Made by a program: the position numbers and the translations under genes. The notes under the pieces are model-generated. The model saw only the letters and a program-made list of their open reading frames with translations, made no database searches and was not told the DNA's origin. Shown in pieces: positions 38,695 to 62,959 of a stretch of DNA of 64,000 nt. The DNA is taken from the NCBI GenBank assembly GCA_000934665.2, contig KZ538350.1, positions 1-64,000 of the forward strand. The letters run 5' to 3'. The DNA comes from Catajapyx aquilonaris (lineage: Eukaryota). The stretch's first letter is position 1. Each line of letters opens with the position of its first letter.

Positions 38695-38795
38695 ATGAGA
38701 ATGTTAGGCATTCTGTACCTACTCACATTCTCCGCTTTCAACAGTGAGGCCATCCAATCAAATCAATCCAACCTGGTTGTTATTCTCCTAGATGG
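38695..38795 (+). CDS. ENPP6: ENPP6-like ectonucleotide pyrophosphatase/phosphodiesterase, exon 1 (signal peptide + LVVILLDG)
   Basis: MRMLGILYLLTFSAFNSEAIQSNQSNLVVILLDG then GG|gtgag; first metal-binding Asp of the DGFR motif. Confidence 0.85.
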
Positions 38796-38867
38796 GTGAG
38801 TGTGTCGAGCCTAATTAGACCCCCTTTTTGGGAACGGATATGAAAACGGTACAAAATTATTCAAAAG

Positions 38868-39007
38868 GTTCCGTTGGGATTACCTGCCTGTAAATGCATC
38901 AGAGTTGCCTGGTTTCGGCCTGATATGGAAGGAAGGTGCTACGGCGGCATGGGTTAACCCTGTGTTTCCATCGCACTCCAGTCCTGGATGGCTCACTATT
39001 GCAACAG
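38868..39007 (+). CDS. ENPP6: ENPP6-like, exon 2 (GFRWDY...FPSHSSPGWLTIATG)
   Basis: aag|G...G|gtaag; Ser-type nucleophile motif FPSxS. Confidence 0.9.
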
Positions 39008-39078
39008 GTAAGCCTATAGTGCTTTTGTATCCATTAGAGTGCGGTCGGCACACAAATAGCTGGATATTCCCTGGACAG

Positions 39079-39259
39079 GCTTGTATCCTGAAAGCCACCA
39101 GATTATAGGCGATGTGTTTCAAGACCCTTCGACAGGAGTCATCTTCAATGCTGCGGATGAGGTCAGCCTCTCACGACCGATCTGGTGGCAGGACTCTGAA
39201 CCCCTGTGGGTCACTGCCACCAAAATGGGGATCATCACTTCAGTCTACTCCTGGGGCAG
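39079..39259 (+). CDS. ENPP6: ENPP6-like, exon 3 (LYPESHQIIGD...WWQDSEPLWVT...YSWGR)
   Basis: cag|GC...AG|gtac; conserved GLYPESH and WW..EPLWVT motifs. Confidence 0.9.
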
Positions 39260-39262
39260 GTA

Positions 39263-39474
39263 CAGTTGGACACCAATCGCGTGATAGCCGTGCGAGTAAG
39301 AAATGGTAGCCCTTGACTGACGTCACCGGCTGGAGCCCAATGGAGAAAAGGCTTGTCCCCAGCCAGTGACGTCACCCAAGGGCTACCATTTCTTACTCGC
39401 TTATGGCTTGATTAGCACGTCTGCCGCATCAGAAAATGTCGCTAGCAGTAGGCCGTAATTAATGTCCAGCACTG
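39263..39474. mobile_element. MITE family A copy 8, inserted in the intron-3 splice donor of the ENPP6-like gene
   Basis: AG|gTA-CAGTTGGACACCAATCGCG...AATTAATGTCCAGCACTG-TAcga. Confidence 0.85.
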
Positions 39475-39528
39475 TACGATTCAACCAAGCCCTATCCGAG
39501 CAGTATTACCCATTTGCATTACTTGCAG

Positions 39529-39661
39529 ATGCGAGATAGAAATCGACGGAATCAGGCCCGCCTTTTGCGATCCTTTCCGACCCAATGACTCCAGATTCCT
39601 CCTGGGAAGATTTCTCAGACAAGCGCTCTATGACTTGAAAAACGGATTTCGTCTTGTCATG
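39529..39661 (+). CDS. ENPP6: ENPP6-like, exon 4 (CEIEIDGIRPAFC...)
   Basis: ttgcag|A...ATG|gtaat; matches the ENPP6-type CEVEI.G.RP..C segment; phase consistent with neighbours. Confidence 0.88.
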
Positions 39662-39724
39662 GTAATACCAACTCAGCAGATTCAAATGTAATCGTGCCCT
39701 CTAACTCGCCTTTTTTTCTGTCAG

Positions 39725-39865
39725 ATGCTCACCGATCATGTGGATCGAGTTGGTCACGAATTCGGACCAGAGTCGCCGCAGGTCAAGAAAGCTATAGTTG
39801 AAGTGGATACAGCCATCGCCATATTTCTGGATCGGATTATGCAAGATGGGGTATTGAACACATCG
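39725..39865 (+). CDS. ENPP6: ENPP6-like, exon 5 (DRVGHEFGPES)
   Basis: tcag|ATG...TCG|gtaatg; D..GH..GP zinc-ligand motif. Confidence 0.9.
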
Positions 39866-39927
39866 GTAATGTTTCGCAATAAGCGCGTTTTAAAATTAGC
39901 TACTAATTTTTAATTATCCCGCGCCAG

Positions 39928-40092
39928 ACTAACGTAATTGTGACATCATCGCATGGTATGAGGAGGTCCAGCCGTGATGCCGACGCCACCTATTACCGTC
40001 TGGAAGACTTTGTAGCTCAGGAAGATGTAGATCTCGTGCTGGACCGGGGAGCTGTGATGCAAGTGCTTCCACGGAGCGGCAGAGAGGACAAG
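39928..40092 (+). CDS. ENPP6: ENPP6-like, exon 6 (TNVIVTSSHGM...)
   Basis: ccag|ACT...AAG|gtgac; the SDHGM motif is present as SSHGM. Confidence 0.88.
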
Positions 40093-40748
40093 GTGACTTG
40101 ACCCGCTAGATTTTAAACCATCCCGGTTCAAAATGCAACCCAAAATATTCATTTGAACATACAAAAAAAAACAAATCATAATGATTTGGCATGGAATTCA
40201 TCATTAAAACACTAAACTGCAATTTTTAAACCTCACCTAACCACAATAATTTAAATATAATATATGGCATTATTAGCAATATCAGTGCAACATTAATGCT
40301 GTCATGCAGCGCATCCCCAATGTGTACACATTATCGTCATTTAAGCTACAATGTGCAATTACAATTATGTTTCCTGCTCTTTTTCTGGGACAATGCACAA
40401 CAAATTAACCTACTGCACATATTGGTACAGGAACCTAATTGTAGTTCAATTATTATGCATCTGAATTGCCCAGGGCAACATAATGAGCATGCCATAAAAT
40501 AGTGAAAAAAGTCGGTGTCAACACTACACTACACTTCCACAATAATTAAGTTATGCGCTTTATTATATGTGCAGAACAACAGTAGACAGTGGATGACGAT
40601 ACCAAAGTAGTTTTTAGTCGAACTTGTACCTAATAACCACTGACTGAAAGTGATATTTAATTAAATCAATGCTGGTGGTACCAGGTGGCAATGTATAAAT
40701 GTAGTAAAATGGAGGAGTCATGAGTGGACTCTTCAATTTATTTATTAA

Positions 40749-41031
40749 CACTGGAACCGTGACGTGCCTTAAAGTTACGGACACCGTGACTTGGGGTCTT
40801 TTAGGACCCCATCCATATTTTAATTTTTATTAATTTTTATATAATACTTTTCAATGTATTGACTATATGCAAATGGAATAATTCTTTGAACAATGCTTAA
40901 AATGATAGCTAATTCAAAGTAAACATGCACTTCCTGTTATATACTTTTTTTAAATGGTAAACAGGTCATTGTAATTATTATCATTTTAATTCCTTTGGGG
41001 TCCTGAAAGACCCCACATCACGGTTCCTGTG
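40749..41031. mobile_element. piggyBac-like MITE (TTAA TSD) in ENPP6-like intron 6
   Basis: TTAA|CACTGGAACCGTGACGTG...CACATCACGGTTCCTGTG|TTAA; subterminal tggggtc..gacccca palindromes at both ends. Confidence 0.7.
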
Positions 41032-41642
41032 TTAACATTAAGACTAGCTACTGAATAGTTGAGCAGATTAGGTATAATTTACCATTGGCATGAAAATGAA
41101 AATAAAAATTATGCAAGTTTTTAGCCCCCTCTGTGGCCATTTGAAACGCAAAAAATGGCATTCATGTCTTGCAAGCTTAAATATTCACAACTCAAGAGAA
41201 GCAATGTTTCAAAATGTGTCCCAGGTTTCGTTCCTTGTCACATACCCTATTGTTGGGAACAACTGAGGGCTGTGGAGGAAAAACATGATGACTGACATTT
41301 TTGTCATTTTTTACCTAAACACCTAGCAACTATGTATAAGACATGACAAACAGTTTGGTATACTCCAAGTTCATGTATCATGCATGAGACGGCCACACGG
41401 ACTAAATCAAAACCAGCATTCCCTATGATTTGTTAAGCAAATTCAAACTTCAATTTGCTCTCCTGAAAAATTACTCTCTTGTCAGTTATCATGTTTTTCC
41501 CCCACACCCCTCAACTTATTCTCATCGAGGTGACACTAAACCTGCCATTGGCAACCTGGTTTGACATCATCAAGCCTACTCTCCATAAAATTAAGAAAAT
41601 GTCACCATGCATACAAACAGTAAGTCACATATCTCTTGCTCA

Positions 41643-41877
41643 GGGGGATGTGTGGTGGCCGAGATGGTAACATCTCGGCTTGCTGAGTGATAGGTCCCAG
41701 GTTCGATCCCCGCCTGGGAGTTACCTTTCGCCTGCATCGGGAGAGTCTCTGACCTGCACCTTGGAGGTGTCTGGTAACCTAACCTCCTGGGGGACTGCAC
41801 ATGGCCCAAAGGCTAGGACATTGCACCTGCACAAGTGTCCCCTCCCAAACAATCCCTATCCCTACCCTACATCCCTA
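41643..41877 (+). mobile_element. tRNA-derived SINE
   Basis: Pol III A box TGGCCGAGATGG (41656-41667), B box GGTTCGATCCC (41700-41710), no complete cloverleaf, ~150-bp body and an (ATCCCT/ACCCT)n tail. Confidence 0.7.
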
Positions 41878-42373
41878 ATTATTCCTTGCACGGTGATTGA
41901 AGAAAAAGTAGAAAAAAGTACTCTATATGGTGGTAATCCACTCCCCTATAAACCATAATCGGGTTATCATGGGATAATAGAAAGAAAAAGAAAAAGATCT
42001 CTTGCTCAGATTCTGAATTGCTATTATTCTTTCATTCAGAATAATGTTAATTGATTGTGTAACTTCAATTAAATGTAATGTTTGAATTTTCAAACAAATG
42101 TTATTATTGTTATAACTTTCATTGTTAGTTTGACATTTCCTCATAGTTTTTCTGGGTAAGATTTAATAAAACACATCCCTCAATCGCAGTCTTGAGACTC
42201 ACTGCAGTCTTCTTCCCAGTAAAAAACACAGGTAGTGACTAATTACTATGGACCATAATACAACATAATTATGTAGTACACGATAGTCAGCATGATTTTG
42301 AAGTGAAAATATGCTTAAAATTGTGCTCATGCTTAGCAGGTCTAACTAGCCTGACATTATTTCAATTTTTCAG

Positions 42374-42494
42374 CTGGTTGAGCAGCTGTCCAAGATCCCA
42401 AATGTACAGATTTACACCAAAGATAGCATTCCGGAGTGGTTCCACTATCAAAATGGCAAATACGTGCAAGGCATCCTCCTGCTTGCCTCACCTG
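42374..42494 (+). CDS. ENPP6: ENPP6-like, exon 7 (IYTKDSIPEWFHY...)
   Basis: tttttcag|CTG...CCTG|gtaag; Y.K..IP..FHY motif. Confidence 0.88.
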
Positions 42495-42609
42495 GTAAGC
42501 TATAGTTCCATGGAGCCAGAATCAGTAGTTGGAGTTAGGAGTGTGCATGTGCGGTGAAAAAGTCAAGCGGAATAGTCGTACAGGTGTATTCCTAATTCCA
42601 ACTACTAAC

Positions 42610-42865
42610 CGCGGGCTGAGAATCATCTTCGGTTATCTCCATTTTTCAATGCAATCGAGCCAACAGCGGATTGACATTGGATGTGTTATGTTCGTTCATA
42701 TCCACCCAACGTAGGTTGTAATAATGGCATCATAAACCTTCTGAGAGTTGGAAACAGTTTCGTTCAAGTCCACAAGTTACAGAATTATTCAGTTCTGAAT
42801 ATGCAAATGACTCTCCTGAAAAAAATTAAAAAGTGGAGTTAACCGAAGATGATTCTCAGCCCACG
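42610..42865. mobile_element. TIR element in ENPP6-like intron 7
   Basis: cgcgggctgagaatcatcttcggtta / taaccgaagatgattctcagcccacg inverted termini. Confidence 0.6.
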
Positions 42866-42950
42866 CCTGTCTATGGAAGCATAGCATTAGTTACAGCAGC
42901 TTCTAAATAGCCAAACCTGTAAGTATCATGCAAAATCTTTCACATGAAAG

Positions 42951-43082
42951 GTACAGTCATTGAAGGCCTGCCTTCTCCAAAACAACACCCACGTGACTCA
43001 AGACGTCCCGACTGGGCAGGCCTACATGGATATGACCCTATTATTCCAGACATGCGAGGCATTTGCACAGCATGGGGTCCAG
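42951..43082 (+). CDS. ENPP6: ENPP6-like, exon 8 (GLHGYD...DMRGICTAWGP)
   Basis: aag|GT...CCAG|gtaag; G.HGYD zinc-ligand motif and M..IF.A.GP-like motif. Confidence 0.9.
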
Positions 43083-43317
43083 GTAAGCATATAGCTCAGT
43101 GTGACATTAGAGACACCTCATGTATCGGAATAGAACATGGCGTTTAATGGCGCAAAATCATCAATGGCTATACTGCGCCAAACCTAGTGGTACGTTGGGC
43201 AGCATGTGGCAACCCGCCCCAACGTTACTAAACAAAAGGCAAAAAGTAATTGAATGTAACCCATTTCTGCCCCTGGGTTGCTCCAAGGTCATTGACCTAC
43301 CTCTTCCTCTTGTTCAG

Positions 43318-43529
43318 CATTTCCACCAGGAGTGCAGGGAGGTCCCCTGGAAGCAGTGGACGTCTACCGGCTGATGGCAGATACCCTGGGCCTAGTCCCG
43401 ACCCCGAACAACTCTTCCTGGGAACGAATTGGCTGGATGTTAGGCTCCTCTTGCACCGTCACCCCGTCCAACACGCACCTCGCTCTTCTGGTCCTACCCT
43501 GGCTTGCTCGGCTGTTCCACTGGGCCTAG
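43318..43529 (+). CDS. ENPP6: ENPP6-like, exon 9 (VDVYRLMA..LGL.P.PNNSS + hydrophobic GPI-like tail, TAG)
   Basis: gttcag|CA...; spliced CDS totals 1326 nt = 441 aa + stop with all phases compatible. Confidence 0.9.
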
Positions 43530-48134: not shown

Positions 48135-48925
48135 CGAGGTGCAGTCAAAAATTACTTGCGCGTATTTTTTTTTAGCCATTGCGCATGACATTTACATATT
48201 TGTACTTCAAGGAACATGAAATCCAGCCCATGTGGGATTTTTTGATAAAGGTTTCAAATTTCGCGCTGACAGGACGCCTGTTTCGCAGCCCTGCAAACAG
48301 AGGGCCTTACCGACACTAGCAAAATGGCGGACTTCAGCAAAGCCGATCAGCGTGTTGTGGTGAGATTTCTTTTTCTGCAAGGGAAAAGTGTTCCTGTGAT
48401 CCTTAAAGACATGCAGGCCATATGTGGGAACTCCGTCATTTTTAATTGATACAGGACTATGCAATTGATAATTTTAAATCCGTCCATGACAAGCTCCTCC
48501 ACACGGCTGACAGTGGCGTCGTTTGTGGTGGTCAACGGGCGGCCAGCCCCTGAGGAATGCGTCACACTTGTACGCCCTTCCTTGAACTCCTTCACCCACC
48601 ACTGGATCGTCCGTAAGGGCATGACGGAGTTCCCACATATGGCCTGCATGTCTTTAAGGATCACAGGAGCACTTTTCCCTTGCAGAAAAAGAAATCGCAC
48701 CACAACATGCTGATCGGCTTTGCTGAAGTCCGCCATTTTGCTAGTGTCGGTAAGGCCCTCTGTTTGCAGGGCTGCGAAACAGGCGTCCGGTCAGCGCGAA
48801 ATTTGGAACCTTTATCAAAAAATCCCACATGGGCTGGATTTCATGTTCCTTGAAGTACAAATATGTAAATGTCATGCGCAATGGCTTAAAAAAAATACGC
48901 GCAAGTAATTTTTGACTGCACCTCG
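48135..48925. mobile_element. Mariner-derived fold-back element made of two inverted 5' ends; retains N-terminal transposase HTH ORF
   Basis: TA|CGAGGTGCAGTCAAAA...TTTTGACTGCACCTCG|TA; ~300-bp near-identical arms; ORF 48736 (-) MADFSKADQHVVVRFLFLQGKSA...IQWWVKEFKEGRTSV..GAGRP resembles the mariner N-terminal HTH. Confidence 0.9.
48347..48736 (-). pseudogene. Truncated mariner transposase (DNA-binding domain only, ~88 aa, then reads into the inverted arm)
   Basis: HTH signature W...F..GR..V....GRP; no DDD catalytic domain. Confidence 0.75.
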
Positions 48926-56197: not shown

Positions 56198-58685
56198 GCA
56201 CGCCTGGTTACAAGGAAATTGGCCACTCTGATTCAAGACTTCCTTTACCGGGAATTATTCTGCGTTCGTGGTTACGCATTGCGTCCGCAAAAGGTCGCGT
56301 TGAATCCACCACAGTTCTAAAATGACCAATCTTAATTTAGTATGTAGCATGATGTTTTCAAAAAAGAAATCACCAGACCTGAGTCGCATTTTCCAGATTC
56401 TGAACTTTTTAAATGTTACCTGCCAAACACCGTAATCATCTCACACTGTGTGATCATAAAAATGACGTGATGCACACTATCCCGAGTTGACGTTATTATG
56501 TTTTGTTAATTCTAAATATGAAACGCCATCCCACCCCTTCAAACTTTCTCTTTACGTCACAAAGCGCATTAGAAACAGCCCATATCATTTACTGGGCGTA
56601 AATTACTACTCTTCTTCGACTAGTTCGACAGCCATAGTACTTTGACACATATTGTGCCTGGTGGCACCTGCCCGTTGACAACCTTCCTAGCAACAAGCAA
56701 ATATTTAATTGCCTCAGTACGCAACATATCGACGTCCCCTAAACATCCCATCTGTCAGCGACAGTCCCACACAGATAGCACCCTTATCAAGGACCCTGTA
56801 CCTTCCCCACTTCCTCCCCATAAGATAGAAAGCCCTGTACACACTCCCCTGAAACTTTTTCTCCTCCACCCCCCTGAAACCACCTTTCCTAATGCTCATA
56901 CATTACAGGTGAAAGGGGGTAATCCCCTTTCACTTTCGCCAGAACAAAACGGCGAAAAAAAAAATATTGGTAACAAAAAAATAATTCTTGGTAATCGCCA
57001 CTTTGTGACGTCACAAACCGCAAGTACCCTATGGGCGGATCCCCTCGTTAGCGGCTTAATTAAGGCGTCCAGATTATGCATTCTAGCACAGAATTTCGGC
57101 CAAAAAAGATGTGTTCCAGTCACGATCTGATCTGATCCACTTCCGGCCGCCATACCGCCTTGACCCTGGTATGCGTTCCAGAGAGAAACCCTTGTGCGTG
57201 AAAAGGTCGACAGGCCATATTTGGGACACTTTCTTATGCCCTCTCGGACTGTCGACGTCACATTCCAGGGGGGGGCGGATCAACAGGAAACCCATACCGG
57301 CAACATGACACCGCACAATTTGCACGCCGAGTTACATAAAACTCCGGTACACCTAGCCTTGATGCGTTTTTACCTCTCTGAAAAAATGCCGGTGTCCAAG
57401 GAAAAGCAATAAAGGGCTGATTGCACACATGTAAGTTGGTAGGCCTTCGCCGGGGCAGCCCTTGGCAAGGACAACTTCTTGCACATCCTCGTTACTATGT
57501 AGCCATGTGCCAGATCTATCATGGCCGGGTTCTATGCACACGTGCTGACCCGCATATTATATTCCACCGAGCATGCATCCGGATTTTGAGAGCAGGAGAC
57601 ACTGCCCCAGACAACGCGGTCAAGAGTCGCACAATTTTTTTTTTATTATTTCATACTAAACATGCATTCCGATAGCTCACATTCTTGTGACGTCACGTGG
57701 AATGACCACACTATCCTGGTGTAAAATGTTACGCAGTTCTGAGAAACAGAGCGTAAAAACCGCGCTAACTGCACCGTTTACAGGTAGCAACAACCGCACC
57801 ATAATTTAAAAAAAAAAAAAAACGATATATCGATATTCCTGGGTCACCTCCTTAGGCCACCAATTTGCTACCGTACTGACAATGTGGGCACAACATCGTA
57901 TGTGATGCCCAGCCCAGTACACGCATAGCTACGCTCCTTCCGAATACCTTCTCCCCAAATAGTAGGCCAAGTCAACGTCTCGTATCCCAAGCTAAGTGGG
58001 TTATGCTGCACACACGCGCGCAGGGCTGGGGAACAAAAGAGTTTTGTTCCCCGAAAATTCACACATTTTTATGTGTGTGACACTTAGGGAGTCCGCAGTG
58101 TCCTGGTAATAACGACTTTTTTTTTTTGTCAAAATATATATAAAAAATACCCTGCGTGACGAGCATGACATAACCAGTGCCAAGGACGCTTGTCATCCTT
58201 TGAGAGCTTTACATCCTATAAATCGCCTTGCTTCCTACTTCTTGTTATGCTCTGACCGTACCCAATTGCTCTTGTGTAACGTTGGCCCAACAGATCCTCC
58301 AAGGTTAATTCCGATTGATATTACGCCCCCGCTTTGGTGGACCTCATTGTTGGCGGCGGCTGACATTGTGATGGTGTTGTGTAATGGCACGAAGAATGGG
58401 GAATTGCAGGCTGAAATGGTTCCCATACTTAACGTAAAAGTTACCAGGCAGGGGTACACCCACATTTGCATCATTATGGTCATCATCGTATATGGATGAA
58501 AAACCGCGCACGAAGCGTTGGATATGTTGATCGCTATAATGATGCTTGTGTCTGCTGTCACACTGTCACAATACACTGGTTCGGGTAATAGTAGTGCAAT
58601 TCTAGCATCCCGACTTGGTTCAGAGACTCAAATGCGTAGTGTGCAGCCTGGTATGCCTGGTTAGGTAGCGAAATGGACAACTTAC

Positions 58686-58985
58686 ATGTGACGATGACAC
58701 TGAGCTTCTGTCTGAGGCTTGCGAGCGTCTGTCCTCTATATCATTGGTGTCGTGATGGCGGTTTCCGTTCATCTTGCTGGCAGAAACAGTAGTGTTGTTG
58801 GATGGAGGTGTTGTAGGTGGCGTAGGGTTAGATGCAGCCTGTCTGCTAGAAGGAGCTTTAACATACAGGACGGCAGCCATACTGCCCTTTATCACCACGT
58901 TGCGTTCTTTGTAGTAGGCATCTGTGTCGGCGTCTGCTACTAGAAGTTTCGTTTCGTCTGCCACTGCCTTGATGCGCTGCACCAC
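58686..58985 (-). CDS. Sip1: NHERF/Sip1-like, exon 2 (end of PDZ + linker)
   Basis: caacag|GTG...CAT|gtaag; VVQRIKAVADETKLLVAD completes the PDZ fold; 300 nt, phase 0/0. Confidence 0.9.
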
Positions 58986-61900
58986 CTGTTGTTTGCAGCA
59001 GAGAGAAAGTGGCAAATTAGCATCTCAGAAGCTGAGGAGACAACGTTTCTAATGGTCATTGTGGGGGTCCTATTACCAAGTTTTCTGTGGTTTGCATGTG
59101 TTACCATGAGGAAAACCACAAGCATTATTTGACATTATAGCATTAAAGCATACTACAACTGAGCTTCCTGCTTGCATTCAGTGTCACCAGTGGTGAAACA
59201 CAATAAATGTCAAATGAAAGCCTGGTAATGGATTCCGCTATGCAAGGAGAACAACATTAGCTGGAGGCTACAAAGTGAACAAGTTCTCTTTATAGCCTTT
59301 CAAGTTAAGAGCTAAATATATCAGTGTAATGAGCTAATAAATATATTACAGTAATGGAGAAGACCTGTTCCATTGCTTAGTGTACAGCTACTACAGTGTA
59401 AACAAAAGCTACCATTCAGTCTCACGGACATGGGCAAGTAATAAAATATACTTCCTTAATCCATTACTCCAGAAGTTGCAATATAAAGGATCCTAATAAT
59501 GGAACCTAGAATATATTCATTTTTTAAAAAGGTAAAAACATAAAGGAGCAGCAATCTGTTGATGAATATTGGCACACACAACGTCCTCCAACATTTATCA
59601 CTTCTGATAAAGATATCATCCAGGTCACCATAGGTAACCAAGGGAACGCCACTAGTGCAATGACATCACGGGTGTATAAATCACAAATAAGTACTTACAG
59701 GATAGCCGATTACTTTTCTTTCTCCCAAAATAGTGGCTAGTAAGTCAACAGCATATGCTACACCATGGGTTTGATGACCTGTGACAAAACAATCCACCCG
59801 GTTGTTACATTCAATCACAGATTTACATCATGCACAAAGTAGTAGCAAATGGGTGGTACTAATTATCACATATCCACTTTGTTCAATACTATTGTATATA
59901 TTTTTTCCATTGCATTCCATGGCCAGAATGCCATAACTACTGACATAAACATTTTAGTACACACACTACAGCCACAATAGCACTCACAAACTATTTAACG
60001 TCTTGTTAAGAACTGAGGCAATACCAATCTGCATAAGGGTGTGGGGTAACTTCCAAGGAGAAAAATGCGAAAAATGGCAAGCATGTCACGGCTCTGACCA
60101 CATACAGGATATGCCTACTAGGTAATATGATGCTCTGACATTAATTACATGTTTGCAGAGGATTCTGCTTGCAATGAATACAATACAAATCTATATCCAT
60201 AAATGGTCACTCAGTACAATGACCCACGTCACATACATATGCACATCCTCTTCAAAGACTGCACCTGCAGTTGCAGCATCTATGACACATTTCCTTGCTC
60301 TATGATTCGTAATACTGCAGGTGTGCCTCTTGGCAACAAAAGAACCGCCTTAATAAGCCAAAATAATGCCTGCTGAAAAATCAGAATAGTCATCCTTAGC
60401 TTTTTATGGGATAAAAGTTGCAATTATTCTAGGGGGAACCTACAAGCTGCCCAGGTTTGTCCGAAACCTGTCAAGGCCACAGAAAAGAATACGCCGGGGA
60501 ATAGCAGCAGGGTTTTTCCTCTGTACAGGTGCACGCCAATTACTACCAAGATTACTACCCCTGAATTGTCGGTGGTCAGCCCAGTTTAGAGAGAAGGAAC
60601 CCTTAATGATACTCCAGCACGATTTCATATGGTCTGTATCAGCTTAGAAGCCCATTGCAAAATGGCTGGAGGAAATATATATCATTTGTGCGTGCAATTT
60701 TATCACATACCCTGACTCTTTGGTGGTAGTGTGCTACATTGCTCCCTTCAAGGTTGTACACCTAGTAAACCGAACAAGAATGACTTTGTCAATCATTGTC
60801 AGGACTCTGATAAATTAACACCAATGACATCAAATTTCTGCCCACAGTATACAATTCCTGAACTGGTGGGTAGTCACTGACTATTTCATTCTTTGTCACT
60901 TCTCATTTACAAAAGCCATTTTAGTCTCTGAGATTGTAATTTGCTCAAGTTTAACCATCACTTGAACCCAGCAATGAAAATAAACAATAATTTATCATTC
61001 ATAAGCACAAATTGAAAGACCGCTCCAGAAAGACTACTAAAATAATGAGCAAGTCCTATATAGTTTTCTGTCTGACCCCCGCTGGTTTTGTCATTGTGTG
61101 AATGAGGAGGCTAAACTGCAGTGATTAATAATTAGAAAACAAGCACGTCTGGGATTGCAGATGCACTAATTACCCCCCACTAGCGCACACCACTTAATGT
61201 TATTGCACTGGGATTGTTCCATGTACAAGCACAACTTTAATGAGTTGTAATAAGCCATTAATATCCCTGTATGATGCAAGCCATTACAATAACCCTTACA
61301 TAAAAGTTACTGAATGATGTAACAGAAGTTCTGCCTTCGCAAGCGATCATAAGGAATCAATAGGAATATTGGTGTAAATGACATGATGCACTGTCTTCAG
61401 GTAATATATTTATGCACGCACTAACATTCATGGTCTGTCGTAACAGGAAATGTCACATGGTCAGGATATTTTTCTATGTAAAACAGCTCCACGTTTTTTC
61501 TCATAAGTTGCTCTTGTTTACATATCACTCTACTGGTAATGGAAGGGGGTTAATATCATATTTCAATATGGTTCGAACTGCATGACTTGGTACCAATTGA
61601 AGCCTTTTAATTGCATGCACTTCAAAAAAAGCGCTTGTGGTTCCAGTAACTGGTCATAACAATGGCTTCACCCTTGACTTGTTATTAATCCAGTGGTTTT
61701 ATAAAAGTACAACAAAGTTAGCATCCTGCACCCTAGCACTGGACTAAACCACAGTGTCAGTACGTACTGCCTTACCCAGCAACTTATTAATTGGCCTTGG
61801 GCCACTTGCCATCTAGTCCATTCAACAATATCAGCTGTCATAATTTTTGTGGGTCTAAGCTTGTTCTCTGACTTACTTTATCTATATGGTCATATTTATA

Positions 61901-62598
61901 GAGCCATTCAGAAGTGGAACAGTTGTGTAGCTATACTATTACGGCATTCTGAAATACCTTTAGTGCCTCTACTAGAAATTTGGGATAAAGGCCCATTTAC
62001 GCAAGATTGTCCTTATGCTGTTGTTATCGACTAAACAACACTCCCTGTGATTGTTGTATACACAGGCCACTGTTGCCACACCATCAATCAAGAGTCACGC
62101 TGATTCATCACAGCTGCATATGAACAGCCTCAAATGGGCCCTAAATCATTGCAGCAACTTACATAAGGTAAACAGTCTTTACACATGCAACCCATGTACA
62201 CTACAGGAGTATTCTGAGTTTAAAAAATACTTCCACGCTGGGAGTAAAAACGTGCTTGGCACAAACAAGGTTTCTGCAATCAGCAAATGTGTACTTTATA
62301 CTGAAAGGTTCAAATGTAGCATCCAGCTCAACATTGCACGAAGCTGTACTTTTCTGAACCCAACATCCAGCAGCTGTCTTTTCTTCCTTCCCATGCGATC
62401 ATACAATTCTCCCTCCCTCTTTTTTTCAAAGGGCATGATTTCCACATAGGCTACCTTGCACAATGCCTTCTTGTACACACATTCATACTTTACCACACCT
62501 TGTGCGGTGACGTGTGCACCCCCCTTAGGCCTCTAGCTGCAAGGCATGGCATGCCACATCCAAATATCCCTCCCATATGGAGTCCAACCCCCTCTCAC

Positions 62599-62832
62599 CT
62601 GCTTGTGGTTCTCGTTGTTGATGTTGACTCCATTGACCTCCACGATCCTGTCCCCGGTCTTCAGCCCCGCGGCCTCAGCCGGCGACCCCTCGTCCACCTT
62701 CCCGATGTACTGTCCCGGCTTGGACTTTTCGGCGTGCAGGTTGAACCCGTACCCGTCAAAGTCTGCCCACTTGATCAGGTGGGATAGTCGTGGGCGCGGG
62801 GGCATGTCTCCCTCTGGGTCGTGCTCGCCCAT
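62599..62832 (-). CDS. Sip1: NHERF/EBP50 (SLC9A3R1/2 family; Drosophila Sip1-like) PDZ scaffold, exon 1
   Basis: [78 protein letters not shown]|gtgag; the GYGF PDZ motif is typical of NHERF. Confidence 0.92.
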
Positions 62833-62959
62833 GCTTAGGCACCACCAGCCAAGCCTCTGCTGCACTCACTCTCACCACACGATGCCACCACGGCAACTAC
62901 AACAGTACTACACAGACACCTGTCGGGCAGGCTGCTCCGAGGCCAACTGACTCCAGCGC

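Follow-up and report, generated by a model that had tools for sequence, protein, structure and literature searches.

Few features of the alkaline phosphatase superfamily vary as little as the Asp-His pair that binds the second zinc ion (Zn2). For the ENPP enzymes, a family review describes a Zn2 site with two aspartates (PMC8808174), and the description of the mouse ENPP6 structure names Asp32, Ser71, His241, Asp193, His197 and His354 as zinc ligands, a choline pocket formed by Tyr72, Tyr75, Tyr157, Tyr188 and Glu190, and a Cys142-Cys154 bond (PMC4757880). Asp240 is not among the ligands named there; the mouse ENPP6 chain nevertheless reads SDHGM at this position. Here we describe an ENPP6-like gene from Catajapyx aquilonaris, carried by a stretch of 64,000 nucleotides (assembly GCA_000934665.2, contig KZ538350.1, positions 1 to 64,000; hereafter the window), whose product, the window protein, has a serine in place of Asp240 and retains its nucleophile and first zinc site (Zn1). 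With moderate confidence we take it to be a one-zinc, near-inactive cell-surface protein, an ENPP6-like paralogue that appears to be selectively maintained.

The numbering of the window protein is nearly the same as that of mouse ENPP6, and alignment of the two agrees with the residue equivalences of the initial annotation. The Zn1 triad that defines an active ENPP (PMC8808174) is complete, comprising Asp192, His196 and His353, and Ser71 aligns with the nucleophile Ser71 of mouse ENPP6 (PDB 5EGE). At the Zn2 site Asp33 and His241 are present and the second aspartate is replaced by Ser240. The phosphate-binding asparagine of active ENPPs is replaced by Asp92, and the choline cage of ENPP6 is not preserved, with Ser72, Trp75, Phe157, Leu187 and Asp189 standing where the mouse enzyme has Tyr72, Tyr75, Tyr157, Tyr188 and Glu190. 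Both cysteine residues of the ENPP6 insertion loop, Cys142 and Cys154, are in place.

How unusual is the loss of Asp240? We assembled 216 aligned homologous domains from 205 proteins, of which 189 (184 proteins) span all eight core sites; 165 of these are wholly canonical and the remaining 24 are altered in other ways, yet not one of the 189 lacks Asp240 and none has serine there. Two apparent exceptions, P0174 and P0175 (2 of 211 rows of high-scoring segment pairs), were rejected as misaligned ends outside the full-coverage set. In a separate alignment of ENPP6-like proteins, with 46 canonical rows (four of them paralogues from the same genome) and 20 altered rows, Asp240 is retained in all 46 and in all 20, and the column of Tyr188 holds tyrosine in 45 of the 46 canonical rows. 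The change of Asp240 to Ser is thus exceptional among relatives, and that of Tyr188 to Leu187 is likewise rare. All four oddities listed in the initial annotation are real, but they do not carry equal weight. SSHGM for SDHGM, and the missing tyrosine before the D..GH motif, hold up fully. The Asn-to-Asp change is less special, since it recurs in 11 of the 20 altered relatives and in one paralogue of the same genome (on contig C214), and the SSPGW segment is less odd than supposed, Trp75 occurring in 21 of the 46 canonical clade members and Ser72 having its counterpart in human ENPP7. The fork that the annotation drew from them, a dead protein anchored by glycosylphosphatidylinositol (GPI) that binds a ligand or an altered enzyme, remains the right one even though two of the four are not peculiar to this gene. 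The residue before the nucleophile, His70 (38974-38976), is also rare, being found in 2 of about 200 domains; it aligns with the phosphate-binding lysine K237 of ENPP1, and a tunicate ENPP7-like protein (P0123) likewise has His preceding its nucleophile.

The gene was rebuilt from its coordinates (Table 1) as nine exons totalling 1326 nt, which encode 441 residues and a stop in an uninterrupted frame, with GT-AG borders at all eight introns, just as first proposed. The codons cited at the outset also proved correct: Ser71 is TCC (38977-79), Asp92 is GAT (39111-13) and Ser240 is TCG (39949-51), the last being three changes away from an Asp codon. By hydropathy and pattern, the N-terminus resembles a signal peptide and the tail, with small residues G414-S416, a GPI signal.

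Could an assembly error or a wrong gene model be masking a canonical active site? The model was made from DNA alone, and the three sequencing runs that support it come from one sample, probably the assembly's own. Contigs derived from those reads cover 9 of 9 exons with 0 differences, a match that is not independent and comes from contigs that drop rare variants; a check of the reads for canonical Asp and Asn codons thus returned the codons of the assembly. Because the read contigs match every exon, consensus error is excluded, the agreement being with what is probably the same sample and not independent biology. A hidden alternative canonical exon was rejected, as translation of the window in six frames reveals no second [STAG]DHG exon. 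Introns 1 to 5 sit at positions that recur among paralogues of the same genome, and this settles the register of Leu187 and Asp189; intron 4, in particular, has the same position and phase in four of five such paralogue models (the fifth has no intron 4), fixing the register at residue 187. Upstream in-frame acceptors for exon 5 at 39677 and 39680 were rejected because they would introduce a stop, and RNA editing that restores Asp240 was rejected by reasoning, since editing would have to alter three bases, each in a different way. Given the agreement of the reads, the three base changes within one codon, the shared introns and the want of another DHG exon, we regard an artefact as most improbable.

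Table 1. Exons of the ENPP6-like gene, with the features that each encodes (positions in the window).
Feature	Position	Strand	Content
Exon 1	38695..38795	+	Start, segment resembling a signal peptide, Asp33 of LDG (Zn2 ligand, codon 38791-38793); intron position as in paralogues
Exon 2	38868..39007	+	His70, nucleophile Ser71 (38977-79), Ser72 (38980-82; Tyr72 in ENPP6), Trp75; PF01663 above cut-off
Exon 3	39079..39259	+	Asp92 (39111-13) in place of phosphate-binding Asn; PF01663 above cut-off
Exon 4	39529..39661	+	Insertion loop, Cys142 and Cys154 retained; Phe157 (Tyr157 in ENPP6)
Exon 5	39725..39865	+	Leu187 (Tyr188 in ENPP6), Asp189 (Glu190 in ENPP6), Zn1 ligands Asp192 and His196; PF01663 above cut-off
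Exon 6	39928..40092	+	SSHGM: Ser240 (39949-51) in place of Zn2 Asp; His241 retained
Exon 7	42374..42494	+	Part of nine-exon model
Exon 8	42951..43082	+	HGYD with Zn1 ligand His353 (43025-27)
Exon 9	43318..43529	+	Last part of catalytic domain, G414-S416 (small residues), hydrophobic GPI-signal-like tail (pattern only), stop

From its sequence, the gene product is an ENPP6-like paralogue of pancrustacean type. Exons 2, 3 and 5 each match PF01663 (type I phosphodiesterase/nucleotide pyrophosphatase, alkaline phosphatase superfamily) at more than 23 bits, the cut-off, and exon 6 scores 22.6 bits. Mouse ENPP6 is the best PDB match both of exon 2 (weakly, E 0.016) and of the homologue P0002 (E 1e-76). 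By BLAST the window protein comes closest, at 34-37% identity, to proteins from springtail and mantis shrimp. In a quick tree of 79 rows it falls among the ENPP6-like proteins and away from the ENPP4/5/7-like and bacterial rows, and a 19-row pancrustacean group characterised by Trp75 includes it with a Shimodaira-Hasegawa-like approximate likelihood ratio test (SH-aLRT) value of 97. A more careful tree of 24 rows places it among the Trp75 members, on a long terminal branch (1.57 per column) with no resolved sister; a grouping with altered ostracod and copepod proteins (SH-aLRT 90 in the quick tree) is absent from the careful tree and was rejected.

A search with exon 6 of the species' own genome (286 Mb) recovered the exon itself and four paralogues at 32-38% identity (all five candidates scored). 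Paralogues on contigs C6247, C9348, C1906 and C214 of this genome retain SDHGM, and paralogue models are 33-39% identical to the window protein. The C214 paralogue (90100-92000, minus strand) combines Asn92 to Asp with Tyr72 to His, has all its zinc ligands intact and lies outside the branch of the window protein. Near-alike ENPP6-like copies on contigs C9348, C1906, C12330, C2935 and C19265 may be a recent expansion or uncollapsed haplotypes. No orthologue was scored among three candidates from a search with exon 3 or 16 from a search with exon 6, and none of 598 pattern matches to exon 6 in metagenome contigs was confirmed. A profile search of 1.84 billion representatives gave 15,513 matches, among the best 150 of which there is no orthologue (full-length matches reach at most 37% BLAST identity with the model), a search in which short orthologue fragments could escape notice.

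Is the gene simply a copy in decay, having recently lost its function or its expression? The long terminal branch, the lack of an orthologue among those best 150 matches and the presence of canonical paralogues that could take over its function would all fit. The five runs listed for the sequence include no RNA run, which bears neither way on expression. The coding sequence itself argues otherwise. The four radical changes require at least 8 base changes in four codons, yet frame and all eight splice pairs are intact, and the window protein keeps 36 of 38 columns whose conservation among canonical members is 90% or more (means of 0.963 for canonical and 0.898 for altered rows); with a threshold of 75% it keeps 62 of 69 (0.902 for canonical and 0.839 for altered rows). 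In simulations of a neutral copy, run without indels, 0.05 substitutions per site leave frame and splice sites intact in 2% of cases, and 0.1 substitutions per site in 0.1%. GC content at third codon positions is 0.55, as against 0.39 in the introns, and falls inside the paralogue range of 0.48-0.64. The gene is therefore probably not a decaying copy, its fold being probably under purifying selection, and we consider recent loss decidedly unlikely.

Loss of metal ligands is frequent among invertebrate ENPP6-like proteins, which makes the present case less surprising. Such relatives occur in tick (P0007), mites (P0103, P0106), scorpion (P0073), ostracod (P0086), copepod (P0112), krill (P0205) and abalone (P0110), and three to six catalytic residues are missing, with Asp240 kept, in P0007, P0010, P0013, P0073, P0086, P0103, P0105, P0106, P0110, P0112, P0116, P0128 and P0205. 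They often carry His196 to Arg together with Asn92 to Asp, and are annotated merely as ENPP6-like or left without a name. In the careful tree the copepod protein pairs with that of the ostracod (93/94), the abalone cluster covers four species, and the altered proteins as a whole probably represent several conserved pseudoenzyme lineages. On a quick tree built without the trait columns (63 rows, four having been left out as partial or near-duplicate), ligand loss amounts to 11 changes and Asp92 to 7. Asp92 is found in 10 of 18 rows that have lost a metal ligand or the nucleophile, the window protein included, compared with 1 of 45 others. Among the 17 altered relatives with at least two losses, Asp192 is kept in 4, His196 in 3 and His353 in 7. 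That the window protein, unlike these, keeps the whole triad suggests that Zn1 is still bound. Its pattern is what is special: the only ligand that the damaged relatives all keep is the one lost here, with Zn1 triad and Ser nucleophile intact.

What would the observed replacements do to catalysis? In mouse ENPP1, alanine substitution of the six Asp/His zinc ligands one by one abolishes activity in every case but H362, and mutation of the phosphate-binding N259 inhibits the turnover of both substrates (PMC9173814). D405 is one of the ligands listed for that protein, and from its Asp-His pair D405/H406 we take D405 as the equivalent of Asp240. In Escherichia coli alkaline phosphatase, D369N lowers kcat/KM 95-fold (PMC4420525, Table 4), and in mouse ENPP6 Y72A and Y188A are strongly reduced (PMC4757880). 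By analogy with these mutants of equivalent residues, the loss of normal glycerophosphocholine (GPC) phosphodiesterase activity is well supported. We envisage that Zn2 would be bound weakly or not at all, so that Ser71 would be poorly activated, that Asp92 would repel the phosphodiester anion, and that choline would be left uncaged by a cage that is half lost. Phosphodiesterase activity might then be about 100-fold or more under normal, the ordinary activity coming from the canonical paralogues in the same genome. With Zn1 still held and the protein probably attached to the membrane by a GPI anchor, as the pattern of its tail suggests, its main role may be to bind a ligand other than GPC at the cell surface or to partner the active paralogues; mouse ENPP6 is described as forming dimers (PMC11677397). 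Alternatively, Ser240 or a water that it holds could complete the Zn2 site of a two-zinc phosphodiesterase acting on a non-choline substrate. Three of the four Zn2 ligands remain, Ser72 is as in ENPP7, and the D369N phosphatase retains about 1% activity. Set against this are the 0 of 189 domains with serine at 240, the inactivity of ENPP1 with alanine at the equivalent ligand, and Asp92, with which a hydrogen bond to phosphate disappears, a loss that is inhibitory in ENPP1. We consider this alternative unlikely.

Several observations weigh against a near-inactive protein. The published mutants are to Ala or Asn, not Ser, and were made in other family members, and Ser72 is compatible with activity in ENPP7. 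The association of Asp92 with ligand loss is not significant when independent pairs are compared (4-5 pairs, p 0.25-1). The binding partner of a near-inactive protein is hypothetical. Six of the eight core residues are kept despite the long branch of 1.57 per column; the same six are kept in 5, 9, 4, 3, 14 and 7 of the 17 relatives with multiple losses, giving a product of 0.002, a rough value because these proteins share ancestry and were picked for their losses. The six kept residues fit continued catalysis and continued metal binding equally well. The main contrary fact is the kept nucleophile, Ser71, which supports a one-zinc hydrolase with a new substrate.

Such a hydrolase, in which His241 and Asp33 would activate Ser71 directly and Zn1 would polarise the substrate, is a tentative alternative to which we give a lesser though real chance. 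Asp92 and the opened pocket would suit substrates that are neutral or cationic, for example an ester, amide, triester or lipid, better than a phosphodiester anion. Unlike the altered relatives, the window protein retains its nucleophile, Asp33, His241 and a full Zn1 triad, and the joint change of Asp240 to Ser and Asn92 to Asp leaves net charge unchanged. Changes at codon positions 1-2 number 2/14 for metal and nucleophile codons against 6/12 for substrate-contact codons (Fisher p 0.09; overdispersion p 0.02), in a test that assumes minimal change; these statistics are weak. A one-metal, histidine-assisted mechanism has reportedly been proposed for D369N alkaline phosphatase. Against such a hydrolase, we know of no natural Zn1-only hydrolase in the ENPP family. 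More doubtful still, on present sequence evidence, is the specific idea that the window protein is a natural Zn1-only ENPP whose vacated Zn2 site has been turned into a Ser71-His241-Asp33 unit acting on a non-phosphodiester substrate at the cell surface. Catalysis by nucleotide pyrophosphatases/phosphodiesterases is described as requiring two zinc ions (PMC9173814). We retain the near-inactive, one-zinc cell-surface protein as the best reading.

The remainder of the window holds repeats and other coding sequence. In intron 6, a very high-copy element at 41640-41980 (summed contig depth >200,000), with similar short direct repeats on both sides, looks by eye like a short interspersed element derived from a tRNA. 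High-copy segments with terminal inverted repeats, resembling miniature inverted-repeat transposable elements, lie in introns 3, 6 and 7 (39292-39400, 40745-41035, 41264-41513 and 42610-42865). On the minus strand are a mariner-type transposase fragment (48347-48790, matching HTH_48), a PDZ-domain exon (62533-62865), which we take to resemble NHERF, and an open frame at 58620-59024 that may be a later exon of the PDZ gene.

Searches of the open-licence literature showed, among the papers listed, no account of this variant or of invertebrate ENPP6-like proteins that are inactive. A natural protein that drops only the Asp240 ligand offers a ready test of one-zinc capability in this fold. Its reach is limited, this being one orphan paralogue from one genome, whose clade has many members with damaged active sites; the recurrence across arthropods and molluscs of ligand-loss ENPP6-like proteins that pass as ordinary in annotation is a side result of perhaps equal importance.

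Finally, these features can be set against the nearest known proteins. With mouse ENPP6 (PDB 5EGE/5EGH; PMC4757880) the window protein shares the Ser nucleophile, Cys142/Cys154, an architecture of the phosphodiesterase domain only, the Zn1 triad, Asp33, His241 and, judged by pattern, a GPI-like tail; it differs in Asp240 to Ser, Asn92 to Asp, Tyr72 to Ser and Tyr188 to Leu, and more conservatively in Tyr75 to Trp, Tyr157 to Phe and Glu190 to Asp. Human ENPP7 (alkaline sphingomyelinase, PDB 5TCD) also has Ser directly after its nucleophile but, unlike the window protein, has a Thr nucleophile, an intact SDHG and a conserved Asn and Tyr box. The Trp75 proteins of pancrustaceans (Allacma fusca P0066, Oratosquilla P0002, P0003 and P0063, and the paralogues in the same genome), at 33-39% identity, keep SDHGM and the tyrosine at the 187 column, neither of which the window protein has. 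The altered relatives resemble it in having an intact fold and a damaged catalytic site, yet the damage is opposite in kind: their losses fall on Asp33, the nucleophile, Asp192, His196 or His353 while Asp240 is kept (20 of 20), whereas the window protein keeps the former and has lost the latter.

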